DNA of 20,151 nucleotides, taken from IMG/VR virus record IMGVR_UViG_640753025_000004, positions 1 through 20,151 of that record. The stretch is one strand, 5' to 3'. The DNA comes from a virus. Its lineage: Duplodnaviria > Heunggongvirae > Uroviricota > Caudoviricetes. The translations under genes and the position numbers were made by a program. A model generated the notes under the pieces. That model had not been told where the DNA came from and made no database searches. It worked only from the letters and a program-made list of their open reading frames with translations. Below, in pieces: positions 1 through 19,058 of this stretch; the first letter of the stretch is position 1, and each line of letters begins with the position of its first letter.

Positions 1-393
1 TCATATTACTGGATAATCATCATCATCCTTCCCTATCCGATTGATAACGAATGTCACTACCCCGACAACTGTAACATCATCCAGGGCCTCACCTTCCAAC
101 GCTTCACCGTCTCGTGTAATAAATGCCCGGCCCATAATTTTTGCAAAATCAGTGCCGCCGCCGTATTGAATTAAAACGGTATCTCCTTGCTTTGGTTTTA
201 CGAAGCAATCCACTACGGCATAGCCGGTTTCTGTTTGTACTATCCGAGTATTGGGGCCGGTACCGCAGAGTGAATCAACGGTCAGACGCCGTTCAACATA
301 GTCAGCAGCTGGCGACGGAAATCCCACGTTATAGCCCTCCGTTTGGGTTGTATAACTGGAACGTGAGCTCATCGCCTTCCTGCGTTGAGACAT
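1..393 (-). CDS. UmuD-like S24-family (LexA/UmuD-type) SOS protein; gene runs to the window edge with stop at 1-3
   Basis: Translation contains GFPSPAADYVE, identical to the segment around the UmuD Cys24-Gly25 cleavage site, at the same distance from the N-terminus. C-terminal DDVTVVGVVTFVINRI resembles the UmuD C-terminus (DTLDVFGVVIHVVK) and a GDTVLI block matches GDLLIV. The canonical SG-x-SM serine motif is not evident (region reads TETGYAV). Alternative start at Met8 (about 372) has a better SD (AGGAAGG). Confidence 0.65.
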   Translation of the reverse strand: MSQRRKAMSSRSSYTTQTEGYNVGFPSPAADYVERRLTVDSLCGTGPNTRIVQTETGYAVVDCFVKPKQGDTVLIQYGGGTDFAKIMGRAFITRDGEALEGEALDDVTVVGVVTFVINRIGKDDDDYPVI

Positions 394-402
394 CCCGGAA
401 TG

Positions 403-561
403 TCAGTGCTCTATCCACTGGTTAGCCTGGCGCGGTGACCATATCCAGTTAACTTTTGCGAGTTCCCGGATAAAACCGGACGTTGTCACGGTGCGACGGC
501 CATTAGGCTCAATGACAATTGCCTGACGCCAGGCTATTTCGATATCTGAGTTTCGCGGCAT
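403..561 (-). CDS. small hypothetical protein (52 aa), first gene of the SOS-box operon
   Basis: ATG at 561 preceded by a strong SD (GGGAGGTGA, about 6 nt spacing). The track ORF 403-606 extends upstream but the internal ATG with SD is the likelier start. Stop lies 9 nt before the UmuD-like start. No recognisable family. Confidence 0.4.
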   Translation of the reverse strand: MPRNSDIEIAWRQAIVIEPNGRRTVTTSGFIRELAKVNWIWSPRQANQWIEH

Positions 562-579
562 AACTTCACCTCCCGAAAA

Positions 580-599
580 TACTGTTTTTATATACAGTA
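580..599 (-). promoter_or_regulatory. LexA binding site (SOS box)
   Basis: TACTGTTTTTATATACAGTA fits the E. coli SOS box consensus TACTGT-(AT)4-ACAGTA with both CTGT/ACAG half-sites perfect. It lies about 18 nt upstream of the 561 start codon and contains a TATATA -10-like element. Confidence 0.65.
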
Positions 600-771
600 G
601 ATTCATTAAGAGATCTGATCAATACAGGTTCCAGCTATCAATCAGGAACACTGAGGAGGAAACCAGTCACCTTTTAGCCTCTGATATTGGTTTCACTTAG
701 TGATTATGTTGTCTATGTGCCAACTATGAACTATCTTTTCTCAAAACCTGCTACTGCAAAATGGATATAAG

Positions 772-897
772 ATGTCACAGACGGACTTGCTGATTGTTGT
801 TTTTACTCTGGGCATTTTAGCCTTTGGCTATTCCATATGGTTCATTTCGAACAGAATACTTTGCTCTATATTTCATAGACTTACAAAGAATATATGA
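772..897 (+). CDS. candidate small hydrophobic peptide (41 aa, single predicted TM helix)
   Basis: ORF MSQTDLLIVVFTLGILAFGYSIWFISNRILCSIFHRLTKNI, too short for the track. A 14-aa upstream ORF (726-770) stops 1 nt before its ATG, and a 48-aa ORF (894-1040) starts in an ATGA overlap with its stop. A hairpin terminator follows at 1104-1137. Weak SD; AT-rich region. Confidence 0.25.
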   Translation: MSQTDLLIVVFTLGILAFGYSIWFISNRILCSIFHRLTKNI

Positions 898-1103
898 ATT
901 GGGATGGTATAGACCCAAATTCATGGTCATTGCCCCTCGACGTCGGAAGGTACTTACAGATCATCTTCGCTCTTAACCTATCACATCGGCACCTACTCCA
1001 TGATGTAACAGCTCAGACCAGAAATATCTGGAAGCTTTAGGCATATTCTTGGAAGATAGACGAGCGCAAAGACGCACACAGCAATGATGTTATGTAGTAT
1101 TTT

Positions 1104-1137
1104 CCCCTTGAGTGTGCCTGCTCAAGGGGGTTTTTAT
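1104..1137 (+). terminator. Rho-independent terminator-like hairpin
   Basis: CCCCTTGAG-TGTGCCTG-CTCAAGGGG stem-loop followed by GTTTTTAT. Confidence 0.5.
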
Positions 1138-1140
1138 CGC

Positions 1141-1216
1141 CGTATTGTACTGGCAAATATTTGTAAATAGTCTTCACCCCCACGCCTGTCACATCGGCCA
1201 CACGCGACTGGACAGG
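1141..1216 (-). pseudogene. remnant of serine DNA-invertase C-terminal HTH (copy A)
   Basis: Minus-strand translation reads QSRVADVTGVGVKTIYKYLP, matching the Hin/Gin/Pin C-terminal DNA-binding helix region. No upstream catalytic domain. About 75 percent DNA identity over about 55 bp to copy B at 1745-1800. Confidence 0.45.
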
Positions 1217-1219
1217 CGG

Positions 1220-1642
1220 TTAGTCCGGTATGTTTCTCGCGCTACTACTGCTTACGTTAACGTCTGGTAATGATCTAGCGGCGCGACGTAAAGCGGCGTT
1301 GAAAGCAATTATAGTGACCGGCCGGCATTGGTACTTCACACGGTTAGAATGGCTCTGAAATAAAAAAACATCTTCTGGATAGCGTTCTCTTCTACGAGCA
1401 ATGATCCCCTCCACTGGAGGGGTTGATTTAACACGTAGCTCCTTCAGGTGACCCTGTTTTCGTATCAGTATCAAGTCACCATCAATATCATCATATCGAA
1501 TACTCAGCAGCCTTCCAGCGCTTAAACCCGTGTGAAAAATTAACGCCCACAAGTCAGCCCATGTATCTGAGATGGAAACAAGATTGCTGTTAATAGTTAA
1601 AAATTGCTCAAAACTTATTGTTTTCTTACCGTTCACGAACAA
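1220..1642 (-). pseudogene. internal fragment of a tyrosine recombinase (phage-integrase/XerC-like)
   Basis: The segment TGLSAGRLLSIRYDDIDGDLILIRKQG and the following region align in pattern with the first half of the tyrosine-recombinase catalytic domain (first conserved Arg). The C-terminal H-x-x-R and Tyr region and the N-terminal domain are absent. ORF begins with TTG and contains no internal Met. Confidence 0.5.
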
Positions 1643-1719
1643 ACCAAACTGTTTTCAAAGCTGAATGAATTGATTAAGCCAAACGTAACATATCAGGAAA
1701 AGTAGTGAAATCTTTGCCT

Positions 1720-1932
1720 TCAAGTCGCCGGGAGGTACTTGTAGATTGTTTTCACGTCCACGCCTGTCACATCAGCCACCTGCTGCCGGGTAGCGCCGTT
1801 CTCCAGCATTCTGCGGCACCGCTCCACCACTTCTTCAGTCATTATCCGGCGGCGGCCGCCGACTCTCTCCTGCTCCATCGCTGCGGACCGACTCGGATGC
1901 ATTCGGCAAATTCTAGGCCGTGATTTTTCCAA
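1720..1932 (-). pseudogene. C-terminal remnant of a serine DNA invertase (Pin/Gin/Hin family), copy B
   Basis: GGRRRIMTEEVVERCRRMLENGATRQQVADVTGVDVKTIYKYLP parallels the Gin/Hin C-terminal HTH domain (GGRPPKLT...LYKKHP). The resolvase catalytic domain is missing; the ORF starts with TTG and overlaps the 3' end of the upstream 266-aa gene. Confidence 0.65.
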
Positions 1933-2713
1933 TCCTCTCCATCAGATATGCCAGGATGACATCCAGTGTGCTGGTCCCATATGCATATTTGCCGGGGAAA
2001 ACCAAACATTCTGACAAAACGGATGTTAACGGAGACACTGAACCATTGCCTGCTCCGCCAATACTCATTTTTTGAGACGGGCTATACGCTGGGATTGTAT
2101 AGCCCGTCACTTGTCGGCTGGTCACTGCAGACTGATCTGACCGCTGGTATGCAATTGCATAGGATCCAGCAGCCTTGTTAGAGCACATAACTACAGCGCA
2201 GAATAAAGATTGCCCTATATTGTTAGGAGTAAATGCCAGATCGGCCTCGATCCCTCCATTCAGAAAAATCGGGAATGAACCTGCTGACGTTGTACGAATG
2301 CCGACGCCATGAGGTGTGCTTTCCTGGGTTGCGATAACCGCTCTGTCCTGTGGCGTAGCCGGAAGCGCCCCACCTGGCAGCTGATAGATGAATGCAAAAG
2401 TATTGATGTTTGCGTCCATAACCACCGCCGTATCACCAGCCATGCCGGATGCACCGGAGAAATTAAGCCCCTGCAAAACAGAACCATTCAGCTTTGTGGA
2501 TGGCTCGAGGGTCTCCAGTGACTTGAAAAGTCCGCCATCTAATCGGTTAGAGATAGCTACTACTTTTGCACCAGACCCCATTTTTAGAAACTCTGTCTTC
2601 ACTGGTGTCCATACTGATGGGGATAGTTCTGAGATCGCTTTCTCTGCCGCTGTTTGTGAGTACACAGGGAGTAAGGGGTTATTCAGTCCAGTTAGTGTGT
2701 AAATCAGTCTCAT
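1913..2713 (-). CDS. hypothetical protein co-transcribed downstream of the tailspike (possible tail-associated or fibre-assembly protein)
   Basis: 266-aa ORF with an SD (GAGGA) upstream of ATG at 2713, 10 nt after the tailspike stop. No recognisable motif. Confidence 0.35.
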   Translation of the reverse strand: MRLIYTLTGLNNPLLPVYSQTAAEKAISELSPSVWTPVKTEFLKMGSGAKVVAISNRLDGGLFKSLETLEPSTKLNGSVLQGLNFSGASGMAGDTAVVMDANINTFAFIYQLPGGALPATPQDRAVIATQESTPHGVGIRTTSAGSFPIFLNGGIEADLAFTPNNIGQSLFCAVVMCSNKAAGSYAIAYQRSDQSAVTSRQVTGYTIPAYSPSQKMSIGGAGNGSVSPLTSVLSECLVFPGKYAYGTSTLDVILAYLMERIGKITA

Positions 2714-2722
2714 TTTTTATCC

Positions 2723-4786
2723 TCAGAAAACGTTAATACGAAAAGCGGGGAGCCAGTCGTAAAGAGTCACGGATGTGTCATACACCCATATGATTCCAGC
2801 GGAAGATCGAACACACCCTCTTGCACCAAGAGTCCGCCCGGAAGGTTTTACAGATGCGCCGCTCTGAAGTGGGTTTTCTGCTGTCGCATAGGAAACGCGC
2901 CCAAAACGTCCAGAGGGGGCGGTCGCCAGGTTAATCAGCACGCCCTTGCCGTCCGAGCTGATCGCGATGCTCGATATAGCAGGTGGAGCACCAGTCTCAT
3001 CCGTGTAGCTAAAGCCGTAATTGGCCAGACCGGAGGTGTTGATCGTAGTCGTGTCCAGCACCAGGTTCGTATACGCTGGGACATTGATTTGTATCTGCGT
3101 GGGTGAGTTCCACACGAAACTGGTCGGAACCATCCCTGACCAGCCGCTCGTAAACCACTCCTGGAGAAGCGCTCTCGCCACAGCTGCTCCGCGCCGGTTC
3201 TGGCCCGCACACGTCAAGTGCAGACCGTCTGAAATAAAATCGTACTGGTACAAACTATTGACCAGCCTGAATTGCTCTTTTCCGTGCAATCGCGTCGACG
3301 CCAGTCGCGCGTACTGGCCTGTAAATGCACCATGCCCGTCATTGACATACCCCAGCTGGGTAATGGCGATAATCGGCGGTTCGTTTTGACCCGTTCTTGC
3401 GATGATGTCGCTGGTGATTTGTCTCTGGTACTGCCTCATCCGTGATTCATACATTCCTTCTCGTAATCCTGACCAGTCCTCGTCGGACTCTCCCTGCATC
3501 CAGTCAACGCAGAGAACAATCGGCAGCCAGCCGCGTGCTTTACAGGCCGTTACGCAGTCTTCGATTGAATCGAGCAGATACTGATATACCTGGTTACCCC
3601 GTTTCTGGTACTCGTAAGCCTGACCAGACTGCGCACATACGATTGATAGCGTGCGCGGCATGATTCCGGTAGCTGCAGCCATATCGCGAATGAAGGTGTT
3701 CGCGAGGCCGCTTGCGGCCGTTTCTTTATCTGTCCCACTTACTGCCTCAACCAGTGGCACCAGAGTAGTGCTGCGTGTCCCTGTACGCCTAACCCCGCCG
3801 CTGAGCATGAAAGCGTTATCAGGATATATCGGCGTTGCTGCGACAATGGTTTGATCGGCGTCAGGACAATATCCTCGAGCGTTGGATTGCCCAGCAGTCA
3901 CAAAGATAAAACATACAGGCACTGTCTCTGAGTAGGGGTACACAGTAGACCCTGACAAATGAAGTCCATACTCAGGGAGCTGGTTGGCATCATCGTCGCC
4001 ACCACCACCGCCATTTCCGTTATTAACAGCTACCAGGCCACCGTCTGAGTAAATCCAGTGCTTCCCACCAACCGTATAAGCTTCAACGATCTGGTTTGTG
4101 GTTGAATCAACCGTCATCCGCCACACTTTTTCACCGCCAATAAACTGCGGTATAGAACCCTCCCGGCCCAGCGCATAGAGTTCGGATTCTTGTTGGGTTA
4201 AAAGTTCGTAATATTTTCCGTCAGGACCGATTTGAATTAATCTGCCGCTTGTATTTAAAAATGGAGCCACGCGGGAAGTCTCCGGATCATATGCTGCCAG
4301 GGTCACGCTGTCTGGCGATACCTGGTATGCGTAGTCGTCACGAACCATCCGCCGTCCGGTTGGCTGCAGCGTTCCAGCGAGGTTGATATACTCATCGGCC
4401 AGAGAGCTTCCGTCCTGACTGCGGACATAGGTTGTTGAACCTGCCGGAATATTCGCAATATCCGCCTGCGCCGCCGCCAGCGTCATGTACTGCCGGCTGA
4501 GAGGGATCAGGTTTTGGCGGGCTTCATCAATAACAGCGTCGGTAGCAGCTGCCATTTTTTTAGTAGCCCCAATTATCGTATCCTGGGCGTTACCAAAACG
4601 ATCTATAAAAGTATCGCTTTCGCTGTTCAGGAAATCATCGTACGCCAGGGCGTTATCATTCAGATCCTTCATGCTATTTGAAGGTCTTGGATTGCCGGTA
4701 TTATATCTTTTGTCCATACCTGTTCCTGTCTTCATCTTTTCAATGAAGCAATTAAGATTGACGCCCCGCCCCTTCAGGGCTAACAT
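2723..4786 (-). CDS. tailspike-like protein with a SASA/SGNH-type carbohydrate O-acetylesterase domain
   Basis: Long ORF with a central FIFVTAGQSNARGY motif, the GQSN(M)xG nucleophile motif of sialate-O-acetylesterase/DUF303-type esterases (as in prophage NanS-p and esterase tailspikes). A Gly-rich linker precedes it and a C-terminal beta-rich region follows. The true start is probably an internal ATG (about 4735 or 4717, the latter with an AGGA SD). Confidence 0.6.
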   Translation of the reverse strand: MLALKGRGVNLNCFIEKMKTGTGMDKRYNTGNPRPSNSMKDLNDNALAYDDFLNSESDTFIDRFGNAQDTIIGATKKMAAATDAVIDEARQNLIPLSRQYMTLAAAQADIANIPAGSTTYVRSQDGSSLADEYINLAGTLQPTGRRMVRDDYAYQVSPDSVTLAAYDPETSRVAPFLNTSGRLIQIGPDGKYYELLTQQESELYALGREGSIPQFIGGEKVWRMTVDSTTNQIVEAYTVGGKHWIYSDGGLVAVNNGNGGGGGDDDANQLPEYGLHLSGSTVYPYSETVPVCFIFVTAGQSNARGYCPDADQTIVAATPIYPDNAFMLSGGVRRTGTRSTTLVPLVEAVSGTDKETAASGLANTFIRDMAAATGIMPRTLSIVCAQSGQAYEYQKRGNQVYQYLLDSIEDCVTACKARGWLPIVLCVDWMQGESDEDWSGLREGMYESRMRQYQRQITSDIIARTGQNEPPIIAITQLGYVNDGHGAFTGQYARLASTRLHGKEQFRLVNSLYQYDFISDGLHLTCAGQNRRGAAVARALLQEWFTSGWSGMVPTSFVWNSPTQIQINVPAYTNLVLDTTTINTSGLANYGFSYTDETGAPPAISSIAISSDGKGVLINLATAPSGRFGRVSYATAENPLQSGASVKPSGRTLGARGCVRSSAGIIWVYDTSVTLYDWLPAFRINVF
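4757..4785 (+). promoter_or_regulatory. candidate sigma70 promoter for the moron operon
   Basis: TTGACG-N17-TAACAT just upstream of the HTH gene, in the divergent intergenic region. Confidence 0.3.
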
Positions 4787-4794
4787 CGCCTTAC

Positions 4795-5082
4795 GTGTTT
4801 AAACGGTTAAATAAGAGAATGATTTTAATAAATAAATACACCCCTCCAACGCAGGAAGATTTAGCCAGACTGAAATCCGCACTAAATTACTCCGGAAACC
4901 AAATGGCAGGGCTCGCAGGTGTAGCCAGCGATAGCCAATGGCGGAAATACACTGGCGGAGAGAGCCCCAGGGTAATGTCAAGACACATACTGTTTTATAT
5001 TGCAGCTCAGCTTGTTCTGTCTGATGAGCAACTTAACAATGTAATAAATAAAATGCGCGATATTGGCGCGGAGATAAAATAA
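4795..5082 (+). CDS. small HTH (Cro/XRE-like) protein, first gene of the moron
   Basis: The segment TQEDLARLKSALNYSGNQMAGLAGVASDSQWRKYTGGE has an HTH-like pattern. Track start is GTG; first ATG is at 4819. Stop overlaps the acyltransferase start (TAATG). AT-rich. Confidence 0.45.
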   Translation: MFKRLNKRMILINKYTPPTQEDLARLKSALNYSGNQMAGLAGVASDSQWRKYTGGESPRVMSRHILFYIAAQLVLSDEQLNNVINKMRDIGAEIK

Positions 5083-6173
5083 TGCTTGGCCTAATAAGGT
5101 TTTTTTTGGCATCGTGCGTCATTGCTTTTCACTTAACGGCTCGCATACCTGCACTTGGCAACTTTGCAGTGAATTGCTTCTATGTTATTAGTGGTTTTTT
5201 AATAACATACATTTTGCATGAAACATACAAGTTCAACTTCTCTATGTTTTGGAAAAATAGAATACTGAGGTTATTCCCGGCATATATATTTTTTCTCGTC
5301 ATGGGCTTTCTTATTATAAAATTAATTCCATCCGCAAAGGAATTCCACTCAAACTGGACAGGCAATTTCTTACCTGGAGATTTATTAGGAAACCTCTTAA
5401 TCTTCCCCTGGGCTTTCCTTTCTGATAATGCTGTAGCAAATCCATTCGGTGCCTTTTCATCCATTTATCACTTTGCTATTGATGGTAATAGATTCAGAAT
5501 AGTCACATCATCATGGTCAGTGGGTGTTGAGATAACATGTTATTTTTTATTGTGGCTTTTCATAGCCCGAAATAAATTTACAGCCATTACGTCGATTCTG
5601 CTTTCACTGCTTTATCATGCTTACGTATATGTAGTACACCATTCTTTTGATATGGCGTATTTCCCATTCCTTGCTGCAACACTTCCTTTTAGCATGGGTT
5701 CTCTGGGTTATTTTGCCCATAGAAAGTTCAAAGCTATGTATCTTTCTCCACACAAAGCTTTTTTAATAACATTTATTTGCATCGGGATTTTTATTACCAA
5801 TTGGCATTTATATACAATTAATCCATTAGGTCAGTACAACATAATACTTTACTACACCAATAATGTAATAGCATTGTTTACAACCCTGGTATTATTAAAA
5901 ATAAAGACAAACATACATCTTGAGAAAATACTCAAGTGGTTTGGTGACCTGGCCTATCCAATTTTTCTTTGTCAATATTTTGGTGGATTTCTAGCATGGC
6001 TTGCTATTGGTGGTGAAAATCGTGGCTTATCCATCTTTTTATTAGGCTACCCAATATCAATTGCACTTGGGATCGTTTGTGTAATATTAATAGACAAGCC
6101 ACTAATTAAAATTAGAGCAAAAATAAGGGCGGACGCTCAAAGCAAAAATAATCAGGAAAACTCTTCAAGGTAA
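5082..6173 (+). CDS. acyltransferase-3 family integral membrane O-acyltransferase (OafA/Oac-like)
   Basis: Multi-TM protein with family-typical N-terminal motifs (FHLTAR, FYVISGFLITY, WKNRILRLFPAY). Markedly AT-rich relative to flanking phage genes and on the opposite strand. Confidence 0.8.
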   Translation: MLGLIRFFLASCVIAFHLTARIPALGNFAVNCFYVISGFLITYILHETYKFNFSMFWKNRILRLFPAYIFFLVMGFLIIKLIPSAKEFHSNWTGNFLPGDLLGNLLIFPWAFLSDNAVANPFGAFSSIYHFAIDGNRFRIVTSSWSVGVEITCYFLLWLFIARNKFTAITSILLSLLYHAYVYVVHHSFDMAYFPFLAATLPFSMGSLGYFAHRKFKAMYLSPHKAFLITFICIGIFITNWHLYTINPLGQYNIILYYTNNVIALFTTLVLLKIKTNIHLEKILKWFGDLAYPIFLCQYFGGFLAWLAIGGENRGLSIFLLGYPISIALGIVCVILIDKPLIKIRAKIRADAQSKNNQENSSR

Positions 6174-6937
6174 ACTAAACCATTCGCTCCTTTTCCTGAT
6201 GAATAGTTACCATTCCCCCCGGCACCACCTGAGCCGGGGAAACCGCCATCATCGCCAGAACTACCGAAGTGGCCATTGCCACCCGTTGATGAAAATGCAG
6301 ATCCTCCAGCCCCGCCAATAAAAGCATCAGAACCATAATACAGACCACCTTGAGATATTCCGCCAGTAATATTTAAAATGTTCCCGCCACTTCCGATACC
6401 TCCAGCAGGAACTGTAGCCCCGCCACCACTCCCTCCAGTAGCTGAGATTAAACTCCCGAACCTTGTATCACCACCATTCCCGCCTTTAGACGAGACACCA
6501 GCAGCAACAGCACTGCCACCAGTACCTATCGTCACAGATATAGTTTCGTTATCAGAAATATTAAATAACCCTTCCGAAAATCCACCAGCACAACCTCCAG
6601 ATGCGCCCACACTAACTGGAGCATTCTGGCCACCTCCCCCCGCTCCCCAAACTTTCACCCGCACTCTTTTCGTCCCTTTAGTTGGAGTGTAAGTCCCTGA
6701 CTTAGTAAAGGTGACAATATTAAGCAGGCGACCGCCACCAATCGCTTTAAGAACCTGTGAATCATCATCAGGATCAAGCTCAAGCCCCGCGCCCTCAACA
6801 ACGTTTACCAGCTCACGCTGAAAGGTATTCATCATCTCAGCATTAATTATTGTCGGTGAAATACCATTAGCGACATTACCATTAGTGTATTCACCATTAG
6901 CATCAGCGGTGTCAGTTGTACTGCCAACTTTTCTCAT
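6152..6937 (-). CDS. tail fibre protein with glycine-rich C-terminal region
   Basis: N-terminus (DTADANGEYTNGNVANGISPTIINAEMMNTFQRELVNVVEGAGLE) resembles tail-fibre N-terminal attachment domains, followed by G-rich repeats. It lies directly after the baseplate genes, and its 3' end overlaps the convergent acyltransferase by about 22 nt. Confidence 0.55.
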   Translation of the reverse strand: MRKVGSTTDTADANGEYTNGNVANGISPTIINAEMMNTFQRELVNVVEGAGLELDPDDDSQVLKAIGGGRLLNIVTFTKSGTYTPTKGTKRVRVKVWGAGGGGQNAPVSVGASGGCAGGFSEGLFNISDNETISVTIGTGGSAVAAGVSSKGGNGGDTRFGSLISATGGSGGGATVPAGGIGSGGNILNITGGISQGGLYYGSDAFIGGAGGSAFSSTGGNGHFGSSGDDGGFPGSGGAGGNGNYSSGKGANGLVYLEEFS

Positions 6938-6963
6938 ATAAACCTTCTTTTTAAATGTCTGAA

Positions 6964-7638
6964 TTAAACGTAACCGGAAGCGATATCAAATATTTTGGCA
7001 AACTCAGGCGTGACTTCGTAAACCCCCTCATCGTTAAAACCGAAATAGATATAGCCGAATTTGACCAGGGTGTATGAGGGGGCGAGGGCATTAATCCGGC
7101 ATTCAAGCTGACGATTACCCCAGGAACGTAATGGATCGCCACAATAACTCAGACCTGCACGGGCATAAGTTATCGTTGTGTCTTCCGCCTCTACCAGCCA
7201 GACAAATGGCCAGTCATCCCCATTTAGCCCGTCACCACATACCGATAAGCCAGCACGCGCCTGCCGGTATTCCTTAATCGAAATCGTATAACCCATTGCT
7301 GCGGCAATACTGATGAAATAGCTCTTTGACTGCCCGCCGGTACTGATGAGTTTCGATACAATGTCAGACTGACGCTTCGCAATCGTATCCACTTCGCCAA
7401 TCGAGCAATCATCAGGTAAGCCGAGTGTTTTTTCCCACTCGGTGAGCATAATCGTCGCAGTTTTTGGAAAGGCACCGCGCAGCAATGCAAGTGCGTCGTT
7501 ATCACTTCGCTGGAAACTGGCCGCAATGGCCCGCAGTACAGCGGCCTGAACAGCTTTTGGATCCCGTGTCCACGCTCGGCCGGTGGGGATAAGCGCCTGC
7601 AGTGCCTTCTGATAATCGTCTGTTGAGAAAAGGCTCAT
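6964..7638 (-). CDS. baseplate protein, Mu gp48 / YmfQ-like (DUF2313)
   Basis: Position immediately after the J-like gene with a 4-nt overlap; sequence character of YmfQ-like proteins. Confidence 0.6.
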   Translation of the reverse strand: MSLFSTDDYQKALQALIPTGRAWTRDPKAVQAAVLRAIAASFQRSDNDALALLRGAFPKTATIMLTEWEKTLGLPDDCSIGEVDTIAKRQSDIVSKLISTGGQSKSYFISIAAAMGYTISIKEYRQARAGLSVCGDGLNGDDWPFVWLVEAEDTTITYARAGLSYCGDPLRSWGNRQLECRINALAPSYTLVKFGYIYFGFNDEGVYEVTPEFAKIFDIASGYV

Positions 7639-8783
7639 GTGTAGTTCACCTCACCACGAACAGCCAGCTCCCCAACTCCCGGCTCAATATTCGCAGAAGG
7701 CGACACAAGGATATAACCTGAAGTACCGGCAACATCCCCTATCGCACGGTTGAGATCTGAAAGGTAAATTTTCCCTGTGCCGAGCGGGTTAGCGGATTCA
7801 AACAATACCCCGTCAATCGCATCAGCAATGGCCGCAGTCGTTGCGCTGTCGGCATCAGATATCCCGCCTATTTCAAAATCGATAACGCGTTCGATGGGAG
7901 AGCAGACATAGTTAAGGGAAGTAACCGGCGCAAGCGGATACATATAATCGGCAACTCTCCCCTGATCCCCGGTGGCTTTTACAGCCCCCCACTCTTCCAG
8001 TTGAGAGACACCGTCAGTTCCTACAGGGAATCCATGATTGGTTTTATCATCGCCGTCGCACATGATGTAAATCACCACGGTACCCGGCCCCATCCCCCGG
8101 CGCCGTATCCATGCCCTGGTAATCCCCGACACGGATAAAGCCCAGCTTTTATAATCAGTGTCACTCCCGCCCTGCGGGGGATTCTGATACGCCAGCAGAC
8201 CACGTAATCGGAAATCCTCTTCACTTTCAATGTTGGCGCCGCCGGTGGCGGGCTCAATCAGCGTAACCGAGCTGTCTATGCCGGGGGCATTAGCATCCAG
8301 TGTAAGAATGGTGCCAGCATCGGCATTTCCGGAAGCGCCTCCTCCTGTCACATCGTCTGTGATATCCGGCAAAACCGCTGTTACAGCAACCGACGCACTG
8401 CCAGCAGTGTTTATCGTTATGGCATCATCGGTTGTGTACTGGTAACCATCATCACGGTTTAACACCGCCCCTTTTGACAGTGTTTTCCCCGGCGTTCCGG
8501 TAACGGTCGCCGCCGGAGAGCGTGCTGCCGTTGCGGCTTTTCGGTAAATCTGCTTTAGCGCCATCCATCCGGCAAGCCACTCATCGGTAGAGGTGAAAGG
8601 CGTGCTCTGACGGGCAATATAATCCAGGTAGGCGTAGTGCAGATGGGCCATGCCCGCATCCATATCAGCGAGCACCTTAAGGTTGCCAAACCGTAACAGC
8701 GCGCCAACACTTTCAAGCTCTGCCTGCATAAACTGGCGATTCTCCTGCCGGAGCTCGCTCAGTGTTTTCCGCTTAAATGGCAT
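7635..8783 (-). CDS. baseplate J-like protein (Mu gp47 / P2 gpJ family)
   Basis: 382-aa protein in conserved order after the GP46-like gene; overlapping stop and start. Confidence 0.7.
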   Translation of the reverse strand: MPFKRKTLSELRQENRQFMQAELESVGALLRFGNLKVLADMDAGMAHLHYAYLDYIARQSTPFTSTDEWLAGWMALKQIYRKAATAARSPAATVTGTPGKTLSKGAVLNRDDGYQYTTDDAITINTAGSASVAVTAVLPDITDDVTGGGASGNADAGTILTLDANAPGIDSSVTLIEPATGGANIESEEDFRLRGLLAYQNPPQGGSDTDYKSWALSVSGITRAWIRRRGMGPGTVVIYIMCDGDDKTNHGFPVGTDGVSQLEEWGAVKATGDQGRVADYMYPLAPVTSLNYVCSPIERVIDFEIGGISDADSATTAAIADAIDGVLFESANPLGTGKIYLSDLNRAIGDVAGTSGYILVSPSANIEPGVGELAVRGEVNYT

Positions 8784-9222
8784 TATTCAGTTGCTCCCAT
8801 AGCCAGAAGAATTTGAACTCCTGCCAGTCCCCCGCCGGCGGCAAATACCGGATGATGAGGTTCAGCCTATTCGGGAAAACAATCTCTGACTGAGCCTCTA
8901 TCGCTGCTGCAATACCATCCGACTTCATCCAGGCCAGAGCCTCTTCGGCATAATCTTCAGCTCTCATCGCCACTTCGCGCGTCAGTTTTTCACGCCGCAG
9001 TAGCCACAGCCTTGAGCCAATATTCCGGTCGTTGTCCAGATCCCCCCACCAGCCGCGGCGGTCAGTTCCTTCATAATCATCATCAGCGCGCGCCAGTCCG
9101 TCAGTAAACAAACTGATAATTATGGCCGTGTGCATATCATTCTCAGATGTCAGTACGCCGTTACCGGTTTGCCAGTCAGCATGAATGGCATCCACATCCC
9201 AGAATGAGGAAATATCACTCAT
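8773..9222 (-). CDS. phage GP46-family baseplate protein (gp25/W-like)
   Basis: 149-aa protein between the V-like and J-like genes, with 4-nt and 11-nt overlaps. Confidence 0.6.
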   Translation of the reverse strand: MSDISSFWDVDAIHADWQTGNGVLTSENDMHTAIIISLFTDGLARADDDYEGTDRRGWWGDLDNDRNIGSRLWLLRREKLTREVAMRAEDYAEEALAWMKSDGIAAAIEAQSEIVFPNRLNLIIRYLPPAGDWQEFKFFWLWEQLNNAI

Positions 9223-9800
9223 ACCTGACTCTCTGTTTTTTCGCTTATGATCGTGCTATCGCCGGACTGAACTTTTTTAACGTCATGGTCATGATCGTTG
9301 TGAGCATCCCGCAGCGCTTTGAGCGTTGAATTGTTCGTCTCGCAGTTATCGATGATGTCACCCGTCACCAGGAGTTTGGGGGTAACCAGCTTTACCTGTT
9401 CCGTTGCCGTCGCGGTGATGTTTCTGGCATTATTGATCTCTACATCTTTGCCTTTCGCATCAATGAAAATTCCCTCCTCGGTCAGATGAATATTCATCCC
9501 CTGCTGGTTATAGACCACGGTTTCGCCTGGCTTAAGCCCGGTATACCGGAAGCTTTGATGGTTAGAGGCAATGACGACAGGACTGGAGCGGTCCCCGCCG
9601 AGAAAGGCAATAAGCACATCCGATCCCGCCGGTAACCCCGATGAAAAACCAAAATCAGAGAGCCGTGGGGCGCTGGCCACTTCCAGCGGAGTCTGGTACT
9701 GGATTTCCTGCACAACCCCGCTATCTTTCTGCGTGGTAATACGGCCAATGCCCAGCATGCCGGCGATGCGCGTGGCCGATTTCTTTAAATTTTGATTCAT
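9219..9800 (-). CDS. baseplate assembly protein V (spike), Mu gp45 / P2 gpV-like
   Basis: 193-aa protein in canonical order after the hub gene, with a 4-nt overlap. Confidence 0.65.
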   Translation of the reverse strand: MNQNLKKSATRIAGMLGIGRITTQKDSGVVQEIQYQTPLEVASAPRLSDFGFSSGLPAGSDVLIAFLGGDRSSPVVIASNHQSFRYTGLKPGETVVYNQQGMNIHLTEEGIFIDAKGKDVEINNARNITATATEQVKLVTPKLLVTGDIIDNCETNNSTLKALRDAHNDHDHDVKKVQSGDSTIISEKTESQV

Positions 9801-10882
9801 TGGTTTAGTCCGGGTATTTGCTGGTAGAAAGCATAAGGCTGGACAGCGAAAGCCTCCGGGGGCATCAGATAAAGGCGCGCATGGGTGCCGTCACTGTCTC
9901 TGATATAAGTCACCTCTGCGATAAGCAATTCGGTGTCAGGCAGCTGCAGACTCGGGATGTTGACCGGGATAAGCGTATTCGGCTCCCATAATTTCCCGGA
10001 TTTATCGCGCCAGGAATCAATCGTCACCGTTAACTGACGGGAACGGCCGTATCGGCGGTTCATCTCCCAGTCAATCGCTCGCTGAGCCTGTTGTGAAGCC
10101 ATCAGTGTACTTTCAACAATAATGATCCGTTTTCGGTAACGCATACTGGCCGCCTCAGGATCGCGGGCCGTCGCCAGCGTCACCGAATCATAAGCCGTAT
10201 CTGGCGAGAATCCTGCAATCGGCGAAATGCTCATCGATACGCCGACGTAATCAGAAAAGCGGTCAGCCATCGAACGGCGGTAATAAGCCTGTTCGATATT
10301 TACCCCTTCTGCGATACCGCTGGCCGCGCGCTTTGTCCCCACCCGGGTCAGAAATAAGTTACCGTCAGGCTGATCGTAATAAAGCAATGCCGACCAGCGG
10401 GAGACACGATCAAGTATTTCCTGTGGCGATTCCCCCCAGTTCAGGGAAAATTGCGGAACTTTCACCAGATCATCAACGTCTGTACTTACGCCAATGTTGT
10501 AATGGGATGCGAGGCGGGAGGCTATATCAAGCGCATTACTGTTATTGATGACGTTATTTGGCCATTCAGCAGAGCAATCAACGAGATCTGCGCACTTACT
10601 GCGGCCTGAGGCTCTGACTTCATGGCGCGAACGGGAAATAGCAGGCGACCAGTCATCAACATACCCCGTCACTACCAGGTCGTTACCAAGCTTTACCTGA
10701 CAAGGCATCCCTTCCTTTACCAGCTGCTTCTGGTCACTTCCCGGAAAATAATCCATCAGTCCCAGGTCAAAATCGGAGGGAAAACGCTCAATGCCACGGG
10801 TCACCCGCACAGAGTCCCATCCTTCAATGATTTTTCCGCCCACTGTCAGGGAGACAATATCCTGATCATTATCCGTACTCAT
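9797..10882 (-). CDS. baseplate hub protein (phage late control D / Mu gp44-like)
   Basis: 361-aa protein at the head of the baseplate cluster; size and sequence character fit the GPD family. Confidence 0.6.
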   Translation of the reverse strand: MSTDNDQDIVSLTVGGKIIEGWDSVRVTRGIERFPSDFDLGLMDYFPGSDQKQLVKEGMPCQVKLGNDLVVTGYVDDWSPAISRSRHEVRASGRSKCADLVDCSAEWPNNVINNSNALDIASRLASHYNIGVSTDVDDLVKVPQFSLNWGESPQEILDRVSRWSALLYYDQPDGNLFLTRVGTKRAASGIAEGVNIEQAYYRRSMADRFSDYVGVSMSISPIAGFSPDTAYDSVTLATARDPEAASMRYRKRIIIVESTLMASQQAQRAIDWEMNRRYGRSRQLTVTIDSWRDKSGKLWEPNTLIPVNIPSLQLPDTELLIAEVTYIRDSDGTHARLYLMPPEAFAVQPYAFYQQIPGLNQ

Positions 10883-11265
10883 TGTCTCAACACCTTCATC
10901 GTCGTCGGCATAAATGCCGGATGCGGTACGCTGGCCTCCTGTATCAGTTCATTTGCCCGCGAGGCATCCTGATACAGGCGGTTGGCCAGTACCAGGGCAG
11001 GAACCGGCACCGCAGTATTGATTTGCATCAACTCACTCAGTCCGGATGAAGTCTGAGCCATGGTATTCAGAAAAGCGGTTCTCACGTCCATCAATGCCGT
11101 ATAAAGATCATCATCGCCACGGTCGCCCGCCAGTAGTAACGCGGTATCCAGTTGCCCGGCCACGCGTTGAGTGATTTCTTCGGCCTCATTACGACTGGTT
11201 GGGTTGTAATCTGCAGCAGCATCCGTCATGGCTCCGGTACATAGCACTACGATCAGCGTGTTCAT
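10879..11265 (-). pseudogene. probable C-terminal remnant of an upstream tail gene (possibly Mu gp43/N-like) at a deletion junction
   Basis: 128-aa ORF directly preceding the hub gene. Its 5' part overlaps the run-on 3' end of the D-like gene in another frame. No recognisable N-terminus. Confidence 0.3.
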
Positions 11266-11698
11266 GGTGCCAGCCAGTTGCTGGCTGCTTTCGGAACGCT
11301 GGTAAAGGTGCCTGGGCGCTGTCTTTCAGGAAGATGGCCAGCGGACGTAGTGCTGTTTTCAGTTCCGGCGCAGTCCAGGAATCGTCAAAAATAATATGAT
11401 TCTGGTTGAACTCGCCCATCAGGTACAGGCCGCCGGACTGATCGCCATGGGTGGAAGCGTCAACATCATCAACCAGAATGGCCGCTGGCGTCTCGCTACC
11501 ATCCGTTGCGGTTTTCACACTGGCTGTATATTTGCCACTGGCGGTGATCATGCCAAGCACAGTGCCACGCTTATACACACCGCCGGTGATCGTGCCGGTG
11601 TCAGTGACCAGTTGCAGCGTACCGGCAATTAACTGATCCGGCACAAACACTGAACTCTTCATGCCAGGTGCAAAGGCATTCTGACCAAATTGATCCAT
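11189..11698 (-). CDS. head decoration protein (lambda D-like) with aberrant 3' extension
   Basis: Position after the scaffold gene with TAATG coupling and SD AAGGAGAG. The first roughly 124 aa resemble D-like proteins in length and pattern; the ORF then continues about 45 codons beyond the expected end. Confidence 0.45.
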   Translation of the reverse strand: MDQFGQNAFAPGMKSSVFVPDQLIAGTLQLVTDTGTITGGVYKRGTVLGMITASGKYTASVKTATDGSETPAAILVDDVDASTHGDQSGGLYLMGEFNQNHIIFDDSWTAPELKTALRPLAIFLKDSAQAPLPAFRKQPATGWHHEHADRSAMYRSHDGCCCRLQPNQS

Positions 11699-17937: not shown

Positions 17938-18462
17938 TCATTTTGCCGTTCGAATCGCTTCCTCAATCGCCCTACTCAGCGCGCCGGGCATTAAGCCGGC
18001 TGCCATTGACCGTGAGCGGTTCATGTAGTCAAGCGTAGGCGTAACAGGTAGAGCATCACCAAACCTCACCAGCAGCTTAGGAGCACGCTGTTTCCGCTTT
18101 GGTCTGCGCGTACCATTCGCTGAGCGCCGGGCTCGTTTCTTTTTCGCCTTCTTCGGTTTACGCCTCTGCCAGACAGCATCAACACCATTGACCTCACCTA
18201 CGAACACATTCGGCTTCGCTTTCAACTGCGACAGCTTATTTCGCGGCATGTTGCCGTATTTGTTCAGTTTGATGTTCTTTGGATTGAGCAGCGCCTGGCT
18301 GTTCAGTTTATGTTCACCACCAAATTCAAAGGGTTCGAGATATTCAGCGGCGACATCGCGCACAAAGACTTTTGCGCGGAGGTTGTTCTTTCTGGCGCCA
18401 GCAGAGCCCACTGAGTTGACGGTGAACGGCGTCGGCGATTCCAGTTTTCGCCCCAGTGCCAC
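17938..18462 (-). CDS. hypothetical highly basic protein, possibly a 5'-truncated late gene
   Basis: ORF in head-gene orientation upstream of cos, with a Lys/Arg-rich tract (RRKPKKAKKKRARR...RRPKRKQR). Starts with GTG exactly where the integrase fragment begins on the other strand. Confidence 0.3.
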   Translation of the reverse strand: MALGRKLESPTPFTVNSVGSAGARKNNLRAKVFVRDVAAEYLEPFEFGGEHKLNSQALLNPKNIKLNKYGNMPRNKLSQLKAKPNVFVGEVNGVDAVWQRRKPKKAKKKRARRSANGTRRPKRKQRAPKLLVRFGDALPVTPTLDYMNRSRSMAAGLMPGALSRAIEEAIRTAK

Positions 18463-19058
18463 CTTTTGCGCTGCGGCGATATCAGCGTGGTTATGTACCA
18501 GGTAATCCGTGTGTTGGTGTCGATAAGTTTCCTAAACCCCAGCGCGACCGCTACATAACTGATGAAGAGTACATAGCTATCTTCACTCATGCGACACCTG
18601 CAGTTAAAGCCGCGATGGAAATTGCGTATCTTTGCGCTGCAAGGGTATCTGATGTTCTTAAAATGAACTGGAATCAGATTCTTGATAAAGGAATTTTCAT
18701 ACAGCAAGGTAAAACTGGTATTAAACAGATCAAAGCCTGGACTGAGCGTCTTAGTGCGGCTGTGGATATTTGCAGGGAATGGGGACAGGATGGCCCTGTT
18801 ATCAGGACAATGTATGGTGAGCGTTATTCATACAAGGGATTTAATGAAGCATGGAGAAAAGCGAGAAACGCGGCTTCTGAAGAACTTGGTAGGCCACTTG
18901 ATTGCACCTTCCATGATCTAAAGGCTAAAGGGATCTCAGACTATGAAGGATCTGGCAGGGATAAGCAAAAATTCAGTGGTCATAAGACAGAATCACAGGT
19001 ACTTGTTTACGACAGGAAAGTTAAAATCAGCCCAACGTTGAACAAGAAAATGAGATGA
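18456..19058 (+). pseudogene. 5'-truncated tyrosine integrase (lambda Int family), catalytic domain only
   Basis: Catalytic-domain pattern present (ARVSDVLKMNW, HDLKAKG, GHKTESQVLVYDR with the terminal Tyr). The roughly 170 N-terminal residues are missing; the ORF begins with GTG and the first in-frame ATG is about 54 codons in. Confidence 0.8.

Follow-up and report, generated by a model that had tools for sequence, protein, structure and literature searches.

The question raised by this locus is whether two genes of opposite predicted chemistry which lie side by side in the tail region of a prophage, one for an acyltransferase and one for an esterase-bearing tailspike, form a functional unit. 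The window, that is, the whole stretch of 20,151 nucleotides analyzed, derives from the genome of Escherichia coli HS, serotype O9:H4, a human commensal model strain in wide use. A preliminary description had proposed that the two enzymes are a paired writer and eraser of O-acyl groups on a surface polysaccharide, linked to lysogenic conversion. In the region concerned, the tailspike gene (minus strand) is followed by a moron of two plus-strand genes, an HTH gene and an acyltransferase-3 (AT3) gene, and by a glycine-rich fibre gene (minus strand). The features of the window are the following:

1913..2713, minus strand: gene of no known family (266 aa) that accompanies the esterase in its cassette and is always inherited with it
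2723..4717, minus strand: tailspike or receptor-binding protein, 664 aa from M24 (PHROG 4201 'tail fiber', RefSeq WP_001565623)
2732..3121, minus strand: beta-sandwich domain at the C-terminus of the esterase module, all-beta, model residues 287-416
3152..3919, minus strand: predicted SASA/SGNH-fold carbohydrate O-acetylesterase domain (Pfam SASA, AF2, Foldseek, homologue conservation)
4346..4717, minus strand: N-terminal tailspike adaptor, conserved across 8 cassette variants (aa 24-147, 687-aa numbering)
4758..4786, plus strand: sigma-70-like promoter match TTGACG-17-TAACAT, a consensus match only, upstream of the HTH gene
4819..5082, plus strand: 87-aa XRE-like HTH 'moron leader', with TAATG translational coupling to AT3
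5082..6173, plus strand: AT3-only integral-membrane acyltransferase, 363 aa, GC 0.35 (Pfam PF01757, PHROG 3333)
6152..6937, minus strand: glycine-rich tail fibre, 261 aa (Pfam Gly_rich_2), receptor-binding tip at approximately 6152-6666
10879..11265, minus strand: deletion scar, a C-terminal stub of a DNA-circularisation protein adjoining a head-decoration gene (PHROG match)

The moron is indeed AT-rich and oppositely oriented, with AT3 at a GC content of 0.35 and the HTH gene at 0.43, where the window averages 0.51, and it lies between the fibre gene 6152-6937(-) and the tailspike. The coupling of its two genes was likewise found as described; the ORF 4795-5082(+) ends in TAATG, which is the start of the ORF 5082-6173(+).

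The second moron gene encodes an acyltransferase-3 membrane protein, as had been proposed. Pfam Acyl_transf_3 (PF01757) matches aa 4-336 (profile positions 6-323 of 326) with E=2e-15 and 57.1 bits, the curated Pfam cutoff being 31 bits, and PHROG 3333 'O-acetyltransferase' matches with E=5.8e-22. The motifs R/K-x10-H in TM1 and RxxR in the first cytoplasmic loop, which are essential in AT3 enzymes (PMC9558356), are both present as R6-x10-H17 and R60-x-x-R63; among 37 homologues, both arginines of RxxR (R60, R63) are invariant, conservation reaches at least 90% for R6 and H17, and the AT3 clade with its motifs is conserved across genera. The protein stops just past the AT3 domain, without a fused SGNH domain, and several separate strongly hydrophobic 19-mers were seen in a crude hydropathy scan.

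The tailspike gene, located downstream of baseplate and fibre genes, has a longest ORF of 687 aa (2723-4786(-)), the length originally assigned to the protein. Most likely, translation would start at M24 (window 4717) and yield 664 aa, the sequence MDKRYNTG being found in 8/8 variant tailspikes and in the RefSeq protein. PHROG 4201 'tail fiber' matches the product with E=1.3e-66. Pfam SASA (PF03629) matches aa 294-542 (profile positions 4-226 of 226) with E=1.8e-11 and 44.6 bits, at a curated cutoff of 24.8 bits. The GQSN motif occupies aa 299-302, and the putative catalytic residues are S301 (GQSN, block I; codon 3884-3886) and H523 (DGLH, i.e., DxxH, block V), the codons of Asp520 and His523 lying within 3218-3229; the Q, S, and H residues are invariant in 80 diverse esterase homologues of 26-54% identity. 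In the AF2 model of the module (pLDDT 93.6, pTM 0.92), the SGNH/SASA fold, whose absence from the 687-aa protein had been named as speaking against the assignment, was recovered. Foldseek matches comprise the XAC1771 acetylesterase, SIAE, 1zmb, 2apj, and NanS (E 1e-12 to 3e-7) as well as the Pan3 tailspike, and none of the solved structures has a detectable sequence match to the HS esterase protein. The modelling confirms the module as a flavodoxin-like alpha/beta SGNH fold of a predicted Ser-His(-Asp) carbohydrate O-acetylesterase, in keeping with the original assignment of a GQSN esterase domain. Esterase and beta-sandwich domain are jointly conserved in 1284 representative proteins; the 266-aa partner has no Pfam or PHROG match.

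The HTH gene is predicted to start at ATG 4819 within the ORF 4795-5082(+) and to encode 87 aa, a length conserved in its homologues, which are 63-75% identical across Enterobacterales and annotated as XRE family in several sources. Matches to Pfam HTH_31 (E=0.05) and NCBIfam RstR (E=0.049) both stay below threshold. AF2 yields a five-helix bundle, with a pLDDT of 84 in the best model and of 51-58 in the other four. The top 50 Foldseek matches are almost all of XRE type, but weak (E 0.06 or higher), the best being the HTH domains of HigA, Aca, and C-proteins. The same leader precedes other cargo genes, for example a WaaZ-like Kdo transferase, and the intergenic region upstream of the HTH gene differs by 0-2 nt over 11 variants. 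The candidate promoter that had been attributed to the moron is well placed, but such matches number four here against 6.5 expected from shuffles.

Whether writer and eraser belong together can be judged from their neighbours in other genomes. The HTH-AT3 moron occurs at ≥98.5% nucleotide identity in 32 of 5426 complete E. coli genomes and is intact in all 32, apparently complete prophages among them. It adjoins eight unrelated tailspike cassette types, and the HS-type esterase is its neighbour in only 16/32 genomes. The other seven are two SGNH/GDSL types, two SASA-like types (hhalign probability 99.8% and 99.3%), a beta-helix, a beta-propeller, and a CotH type; at least four, probably five, of the eight types (26/32 genomes) are esterases, and a sixth has SGNH-like motifs. 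Across the eight variants, aa 24-147 of the tailspike are nearly invariant, similarity ceases past aa 147, and the C-termini are unrelated. From these alignments, the end of the N-terminal adaptor is the recombination junction for cassette swapping; the nucleotide homologies of the window to two Klebsiella phages overlap at 4398-4516.

The HS esterase cassette is, in turn, approximately 90% identical to a very common cassette of Klebsiella pneumoniae and also resides on five or more further phage backbones, in none of which an acyltransferase lies close to it. These carriers include Klebsiella siphophages, which are its commonest setting, phage ST16-OXA48phi5.2, the lytic phage AV124, and a second E. 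coli prophage. In ST16-OXA48phi5.2, AV124, another E. coli prophage, and the K. pneumoniae siphophages, the 266-aa gene directly follows the esterase.

A true writer/eraser pair, in which one surface polysaccharide would be acylated by AT3 and deacetylated by the tailspike esterase, is quite improbable in light of these distributions. The host would in that case bear a mark set by its prophage, which virions of this prophage or of its relatives could read or remove, be it for superinfection control or to counter acetyl-based exclusion. Both enzymes are credible by Pfam, AF2, Foldseek, and conserved motifs, esterases abound among the cassettes beside the moron, and the hosts of the E. coli copies of the esterase cassette, like the AT3-bearing genomes, are O9 strains whose K loci vary. 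However, AT3, itself constant, is paired with five or more highly dissimilar esterases and, in addition, with non-esterase tailspikes; the esterase does without an acyltransferase in its commonest setting; AT3 swaps with the fibre tip rather than with the tailspike; and the exact combination is a single event in a defective remnant. In related temperate phages, moreover, esterases are in any case the most frequent class of receptor-binding protein, and in Klebsiella prophages SGNH proteins are the most frequent receptor-binding enzymes (PMC13123978). The co-inheritance expected of a dedicated pair was not found, and since AT3 and esterase assort independently in related prophages, they do not constitute a dedicated write/erase pair; of the initial proposal, both enzyme assignments stand, whereas the functional pairing is not supported. 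The richness in esterase cassettes could still mean that acetyl groups are central to the receptor use of this lineage, which would link writer and eraser.

The partner with which AT3 travels appears to be the fibre. Over window positions 6667-11304, a Klebsiella prophage (L017) matches HS at 99.2% identity, and it encodes an identical HTH protein, yet positions 5279-6666, i.e., the AT3 body and the fibre tip, are replaced as a single block, leaving AT3 49% and the tip roughly 35-40% identical (read from the alignment). A prophage of unrelated backbone (L014) shares with HS only the HTH gene, AT3 (64%), and the fibre tip (75%). By these two comparisons, AT3 co-varies with the receptor-binding tip of the glycine-rich fibre and not with the tailspike. 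Physical adjacency alone could explain the co-transfer, because the 3' ends of the two genes overlap by 22 nt. AT3 relatives in other phages adjoin non-esterase fibres, and the last receptor-binding gene is their direct convergent neighbour in all phage contexts seen, six besides HS. The apparent co-transfer points to a possible rule by which a lysogenic-conversion enzyme fits the receptor-binding tip next to it.

A more far-reaching reading is unlikely. HTH leader, AT3, and fibre tip would be a portable reader-writer cassette, whose tip recognizes an LPS glycan of the host and whose AT3, in lysogens, acylates this very glycan, excluding kin phages; for the O9-restricted lineage, this would imply O-acylation, so far undescribed, of the O9 polymannan or core. 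The esterase richness would reflect an acetyl-centred arms race with erasers recruited repeatedly against such marks, and the 87-aa XRE leader would be an Enterobacterales-wide plug-in slot for LPS-modifying cargo such as AT3 or the WaaZ-like Kdo transferase.

The hosts bear on the nature of the substrate. Among the 32 moron-carrying records, 16 could be O-typed, and all 16 are O9, against a background of 285/5426 genomes; K loci differ among these typed hosts, and in one of them colanic acid takes the place of the group 1 K locus. A host range set by something besides AT3 or the fibre may underlie the O9 association. AT3-only enzymes act on many substrates, the enterobacterial common antigen (ECA; WecH) among them (PMC9558356). 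It is conceivable, albeit rather unlikely, that AT3 acts on a glycan unrelated to adsorption (ECA, peptidoglycan, colanic acid, or K antigen) and is kept for host benefit, namely serum, bile, or immune evasion, with no tie to fibre or tailspike. The same AT3 allele in hosts with different K loci, the moron still intact within a decaying prophage, and the use of the HTH leader ahead of other envelope-modifying cargo agree with this, whereas the constantly convergent position next to the final receptor-binding gene, the joint exchange of AT3 and fibre tip, and a strict O9 association, unexpected for a universal substrate such as ECA, argue against it.

All 16 E. coli genomes with the exact AT3-esterase pair carry one and the same prophage remnant, in copies 99.9-100% identical. 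Its records in HS and Res13 share their layout, have a truncated integrase, and are without capsid, sheath, tube, and tape-measure genes, which are carried by intact relatives with other cassettes. The scar at 10879..11265, where the PHROG match to the DNA-circularisation protein covers only positions 282-407 of 411, marks this loss, and the exact pairing is a single historical event kept in a defective remnant lineage. The esterase had been considered virion-associated; in HS, where the structural genes are absent, as in Res13, it cannot be virion-borne, and only AT3 could therefore still act there.

That both genes idle in E. coli HS as recent debris, their ORFs intact for want of decay time, is very doubtful. 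The decay of the remnant, a divergence among the 16 copies too small to show selection, and a promoter match at chance level would fit such a relic. Against it stand the intactness of the moron in 32/32 genomes, complete-looking prophages included, the conservation of the AT3 clade and motifs across genera, and the fact that AT3 requires no virion for its action. E. coli HS probably carries a prophage acyltransferase that is still functional.

Summarizing, the explanation that is favoured, and considered fairly probable, is that of two separately mobile host-surface modules in a defective prophage with a Mu-like baseplate, placed side by side through cassette shuffling. In the first module, the N-terminal adaptor would dock a deacetylating tailspike to the baseplate; the swapped C-terminal unit would consist of the SASA/SGNH esterase and the beta-sandwich, followed by the 266-aa partner gene. 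In a working virion, this tailspike would bind the host polysaccharide and strip O-acetyl groups without cutting the chain, as does G7C gp63.1 and as has been proposed for Klebsiella prophage SGNH fibres. The second module would be a lysogenic-conversion moron, with an AT3-only membrane acyltransferase behind a small regulator of XRE type. AT3 would, in the lysogen, transfer an acyl group from a cytoplasmic donor to an envelope glycan, most likely the one read by the adjacent glycine-rich fibre tip, because AT3 is exchanged together with that tip. In the O9-restricted lineage, this target would probably be LPS (O9 polymannan or core), and the adsorption of related phages would be blocked. We know of no O-acetylation of the O9 polymannan. 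The analysis shows the folds and motifs, the layout of the genes, their modular assortment, the co-variation of AT3 with the fibre tip, the O9 association, and the defective state of the prophage, whereas we infer the substrates, the exclusion effect, and that the lysogen expresses AT3. As to the proposed lysogenic conversion, the moron sits where such morons sit; its promoter is a consensus match at chance frequency.

For genome mining, it follows as a caution that, in the tail region of a prophage, cassette shuffling can place genes of opposing chemistry side by side without their being a functional unit. AT3 of HS could alter LPS or another envelope glycan, and hence phage sensitivity and antigenicity. 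E. coli O9 strains and K. pneumoniae swap whole receptor-binding modules, at 90-99% nucleotide identity, and such cross-genus exchange bears on phage host-range prediction and phage therapy.

Each of these parts has known counterparts. With the C-proteins of R-M systems, Aca1/2/10 (anti-CRISPR-associated), and HigA, the HS leader (87 aa, five helices in the model, two-gene operon) shares the position of a small HTH protein first in an operon; it differs in its weak fold matches (E 0.06 or higher) and in lacking a Pfam or NCBIfam match past threshold. The best structural match to esterase plus beta-sandwich is the tailspike of the cyanopodophage Pan3 (PDB 9vyh; Foldseek E=2e-23, TM 0.78, approximately 460 columns), which is about 20% identical to the HS module and belongs to a phage with a cyanobacterial host. 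G7C gp63.1, which deacetylates the host O antigen and does not depolymerise it, and two Klebsiella pneumoniae prophage SGNH fibres, which hydrolyse p-nitrophenyl acetate and for which capsule deacetylation has been proposed (PMC13123978), have an SGNH-superfamily enzymatic head in common with the HS tailspike, where it is predicted; the tailspike of HS falls into the SASA (PF03629) branch, its signature being GQSN/QGE/DxxH, and the copy in the window resides in a defective prophage. Sf6 Oac and other phage AT3-only O-antigen acetylases are, like AT3 of HS, AT3-only prophage morons with R/K-x10-H and RxxR, and from such morons serotype or lysogenic conversion hindering the adsorption of same-type phages is expected (PMC9558356). 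In comparison with Sf6 Oac, AT3 of HS is only distantly similar, at the family level (PHROG 3333), is led by a conserved XRE-like gene, is convergent to a glycine-rich fibre gene instead of lying near int/att, and has O9 E. coli as hosts. The parts are of known kinds, brought together by cassette shuffling.

The window is identical to about 2,062,900-2,083,050 of the chromosome of E. coli HS (NC_009800.1), a commensal of serotype O9:H4, where a prophage of ~19 kb adjoins tRNA-Ser and mtfA; O9:H10 pig isolates have the identical layout at the identical site. Terminase, portal, protease, decoration, and baseplate genes are kept, and none of the major capsid, sheath, tube, tail-assembly, and tape-measure genes present in intact relatives was found in the HS element; the prophages of ECCTRSRTH03 and 20KM2222 are examples of relatives that look intact. 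At the deletion scar, a 128-amino acid ORF abuts the head-decoration gene, and its match to a DNA-circularisation protein is confined to the C-terminus of the latter. Deletion has thus reduced the prophage to a remnant; with capsid, sheath, tube, and tape-measure genes missing and the integrase truncated, no virions are possible from it in HS. The left arm (38-4516) is 90-93% identical at the nucleotide level to a lambda-like siphophage of K. pneumoniae, and the baseplate arm (6667-11304) is 99.2% identical to a myovirus-type prophage of the same species. The remnant is a mosaic of two Klebsiella-type phages, which points to a recent exchange of phage genes between K. pneumoniae and O9 E. coli. 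At the left end (1-1642), a UmuD-like gene neighbors a DNA polymerase V gene flagged as frameshifted by RefSeq; a 140-amino acid integrase-like fragment (PHROG 19751) is found there as well as at the same position in a Klebsiella siphophage.

Features of the remnant and its host
1913-2713, partner gene of 266 amino acids, without family match
2723-4717, minus strand, tailspike with SASA domain
4819-5082, 87-amino acid XRE-like leader (homologue loci L033-L040)
5082-6173, plus strand, acyltransferase-3 gene (AT3; ECHS_RS10305)
6152-6937, minus strand, glycine-rich tail fibre, its tip at ~6152-6666
10879-11265, deletion scar ORF of 128 amino acids, DNA-circularisation protein stub (region 9797-11698)
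18456-19058, truncated integrase
NC_009800.1 2143116-2175000 (L013, outside the window), HS O9 polymannan cluster and group 1 capsule locus

All features listed in the preliminary description are present, and both of its enzyme assignments, esterase and acyltransferase, stand. The tailspike ORF (2723-4786, minus strand) matches Pfam SASA with 44.6 bits (cutoff 24.8) and also PHROG 4201 "tail fiber". The ORF had been described as a protein of 687 amino acids; its start is almost certainly M24 at 4717, which gives 664 amino acids, since MDKRYNTG is the N-terminus in RefSeq and in all eight variant tailspikes. PDB sequence searches gave no meaningful match for either the HS tailspike or the SGNH tailspike of ECCTRSRTH03, and structure prediction was therefore used. 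The AlphaFold model is confident (pLDDT 93.6, pTM 0.92) and contains an alpha/beta domain followed by a beta-sandwich. Its Foldseek matches in the PDB include the cyanophage tailspike 9vyh (E=2e-23, TM 0.78), the Xanthomonas carbohydrate acetylesterase XAC1771, mammalian sialate O-acetylesterase, an acetylxylan esterase, and NanS. A homologue search with amino acids 270-687 against 1.84 billion representative proteins returned 1284 relatives; most are proteins about as large as a tailspike that match over their last 400 residues and differ in their N-termini. Among 80 aligned relatives (26-54% identity), Gln-Ser of GQSN and His of DGLH never vary and Glu of QGESD hardly does; the esterase residues are S301, H523, and D520 in the 687-amino acid numbering. 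The protein therefore has both the fold and the catalytic residues expected of a carbohydrate O-acetylesterase, with activity being predicted; lack of an SGNH/SASA fold, which would have refuted the preliminary description, was not observed. The supplementary files of a Klebsiella GWAS paper held no match to HS esterase peptides.

The 266-amino acid partner follows the HS esterase in every backbone, and alternative tailspike cassettes each bring their own partner of 249-460 amino acids. One of these has a weak concanavalin-like lectin match, and that of the Klebsiella prophage L017 matches an arabinofuranosidase-B catalytic domain. The partner proteins may serve in assembly or as a second receptor-binding subunit.

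The moron is AT-rich, as described, with a GC content of 0.35 in AT3 and 0.43 in the upstream gene vs 0.51 in the window, and its two genes are coupled by TAATG, the first ORF ending at 5082. The second, of 363 amino acids, matches Acyl_transf_3 with 57.1 bits (cutoff 31) and has an AT3-only architecture. It contains R6-x10-H17 within the first hydrophobic segment and R60-x-x-R63; R-x10-H and RxxR are the two motif types called essential in a review of AT3 proteins (PMC9558356), and both are kept in 37 homologues, down to 26% identity. The upstream HTH gene is confirmed as an ORF, with its extent corrected to 87 amino acids from the ATG at 4819, a length conserved among homologues. Its assignment to the XRE type comes with sub-threshold matches at best in Pfam and NCBIfam. 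The protein models as a five-helix bundle; the top structural matches, at weak E-values, all belong to XRE-type HTH proteins (HigA, Aca1/2/10, restriction-modification C-proteins). Its homologues, 63-75% identical across Enterobacterales, often bear the name XRE family. The promoter candidate at 4758-4786 is well placed, and is a consensus match of a kind not more frequent than in shuffled sequence.

The 87-amino acid protein is a conserved "moron leader" across Enterobacterales. Its cargo varies by prophage, being AT3 in the window, a WaaZ-like Kdo-III transferase of 253 amino acids in Citrobacter P2-like prophages, and a 240-amino acid protein without assigned function in Salmonella; in these three cases the leader faces, in convergent orientation, a gene for a tail fibre or for fibre assembly. 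In a lambdoid prophage of Klebsiella oxytoca the leader has no cargo and lies between the Q antiterminator and lysis genes. An ORF of 57-58 amino acids often lies directly upstream of the leader; it is absent in the window.

The preliminary description had further proposed that AT3 and the esterase form a writer and eraser pair. The moron is found in 32 of 5426 complete E. coli genomes at no less than 98.5% nucleotide identity, always between the same glycine-rich fibre gene and an adaptor-bearing tailspike. The adaptor, comprising the first ~125 residues (amino acids 24-147 of the 687-amino acid ORF), is nearly invariant; beyond it the tailspikes are unrelated and fall into eight types.

Tailspike cassette types adjoining the moron in E. 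coli
HS SASA type, 16 genomes
SGNH/GDSL, 591 amino acids, about 7 genomes
SGNH/GDSL, 626 amino acids, 1 genome (30.2 bits, just below the 32.9 cutoff)
SASA-like, 727 amino acids, 1 genome (hhalign probability 99.8%; missed by Pfam)
SASA-like, 691 amino acids, 1 genome (hhalign probability 99.3%; missed by Pfam)
Right-handed beta-helix, 2 genomes
Beta-propeller protein, 3 genomes
CotH-domain protein, 1 genome

At least four, probably five, of the eight types are esterase cassettes, a share that is not clearly above background for such phages, because SGNH receptor-binding proteins are the most frequent class in Klebsiella prophages in general (PMC13123978). The beta-propeller cassette and the Klebsiella L017 tailspike were considered as hidden SASA esterases and rejected on testing. 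The "TolB family" tailspike of strain 22F46 (L006, 2815-3726, the C-terminal 304 amino acids) combines beta-propeller repeats with a C-terminal domain that is homologous (E=4e-48) to a solved, uncharacterised, and apparently unpublished tail spike (PDB 9sij/9sim; a literature search found no paper) and contains the SGNH-like motifs GHS, GRN, and D-x-LHP; it may represent a sixth esterase-type cassette. The tailspike of strain ES2 (L007, 2761-4923) joins the same adaptor to a domain resembling CotH kinases (Pfam E=3.6e-18), which is uncommon as the head of a receptor-binding protein.

The 16 E. coli genomes with the exact AT3 and SASA pair all share one defective remnant: the HS and Res13 records have it at the same chromosomal site and with the same deletion, and 10 others contain a further-truncated form. 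The pairing therefore goes back to a single event. The HS esterase and its partner also occur without a nearby acyltransferase in two kinds of K. pneumoniae lambda-like siphophage (92.9% nucleotide identity of one over 977-4516), in Klebsiella phage ST16-OXA48phi5.2, in the lytic Vequintavirinae phage AV124, and in a second E. coli prophage. Conversely, in several other backbones AT3 relatives (45-64% identity) converge on the final receptor-binding gene, which encodes a glycine-rich, Peptidase_S74, or Caudo_TAP/Gp53-like fibre, with no esterase among these neighbors. A substrate common to both enzymes is improbable. A dN/dS analysis of the moron was uninformative, with just 0-16 differences.

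AT3 would instead be linked to the tip of the fibre. The K. pneumoniae prophage L017 is 99.2% identical to the window from the fibre N-terminus to the baseplate hub (6667-11304). Identity is 88.7% over 4398-5278, where the tailspike adaptor, the HTH protein (the same in both), and the first 65 AT3 residues are encoded. The intervening 5279-6666, comprising the AT3 body and the glycine-rich C-terminal fibre tip, is replaced as a single block; identity is 49% for AT3 and, as read from the alignment, roughly 35-40% for the tip, vs about 98% for fibre residues 1-97. In an unrelated backbone (L014), the shared DNA is solely HTH, AT3, and fibre tip (68% nucleotide identity over 4887-6734); AT3 is 64% and the tip 75% identical, and here, too, the convergent genes overlap by 22 nt. 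These two comparisons suggest that AT3 co-varies with the fibre tip and not with the tailspike, a pattern that adjacency alone could produce. It does agree with the classical scheme of a conversion enzyme that alters the receptor recognised by the phage encoding it.

As for the target, 16 of the 32 moron records could be typed and all 16 are O9 (11 among the 60 O9 matches listed, 3 checked directly, 2 by name), so that the moron lineage is O9-restricted. O9 genes occur in 285 of 5426 genomes, and about 0.35 carriers would be expected by chance among the 60 matches listed, vs the 11 found; the typed hosts span at least six cassette and site lineages. In HS, the O9 cluster adjoins a Klebsiella-like group 1 K locus (wzc, wbaP, glycosyltransferases, wzy, wzx, gnd, rmlBADC, ugd), found in exact form in just 14 of 5426 genomes. 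K loci differ among the typed moron hosts, and a constant AT3 acting on a variable K antigen is unlikely; LPS (O9 polymannan or core) or another conserved glycan is the more likely target. A literature search found no report of O-acylation of the O9 antigen. An O9 association brought about by group 1 capsules is weakened by Ec1117, an O9 strain with a colanic-acid locus instead. A tie of the esterase to the HS capsule type was rejected, with no other esterase carrier among the 14 genomes and a differing K locus in PCN061; as the remnant is old, this rejection carries limited weight.

In summary, the best reading of the region is that of two modules which move independently. The first would be a tailspike cassette with deacetylating function that came in from a Klebsiella-type phage, and the second an HTH-led AT3 conversion moron matched to the adjoining fibre tip, of which AT3 alone could still function in HS. 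The more interesting leads are the unit of AT3 and fibre tip, the O9 restriction, and the reusable HTH leader. The tailspike cassette and the AT3 moron themselves both belong to already known kinds: esterase receptor-binding proteins are established for G7C gp63.1 and acetyltransferases are predicted in 5-30% of prophages (PMC13123978), and phage-borne, AT3-only O-antigen acetylases conferring superinfection immunity, such as Sf6 Oac, are textbook cases (PMC9558356).
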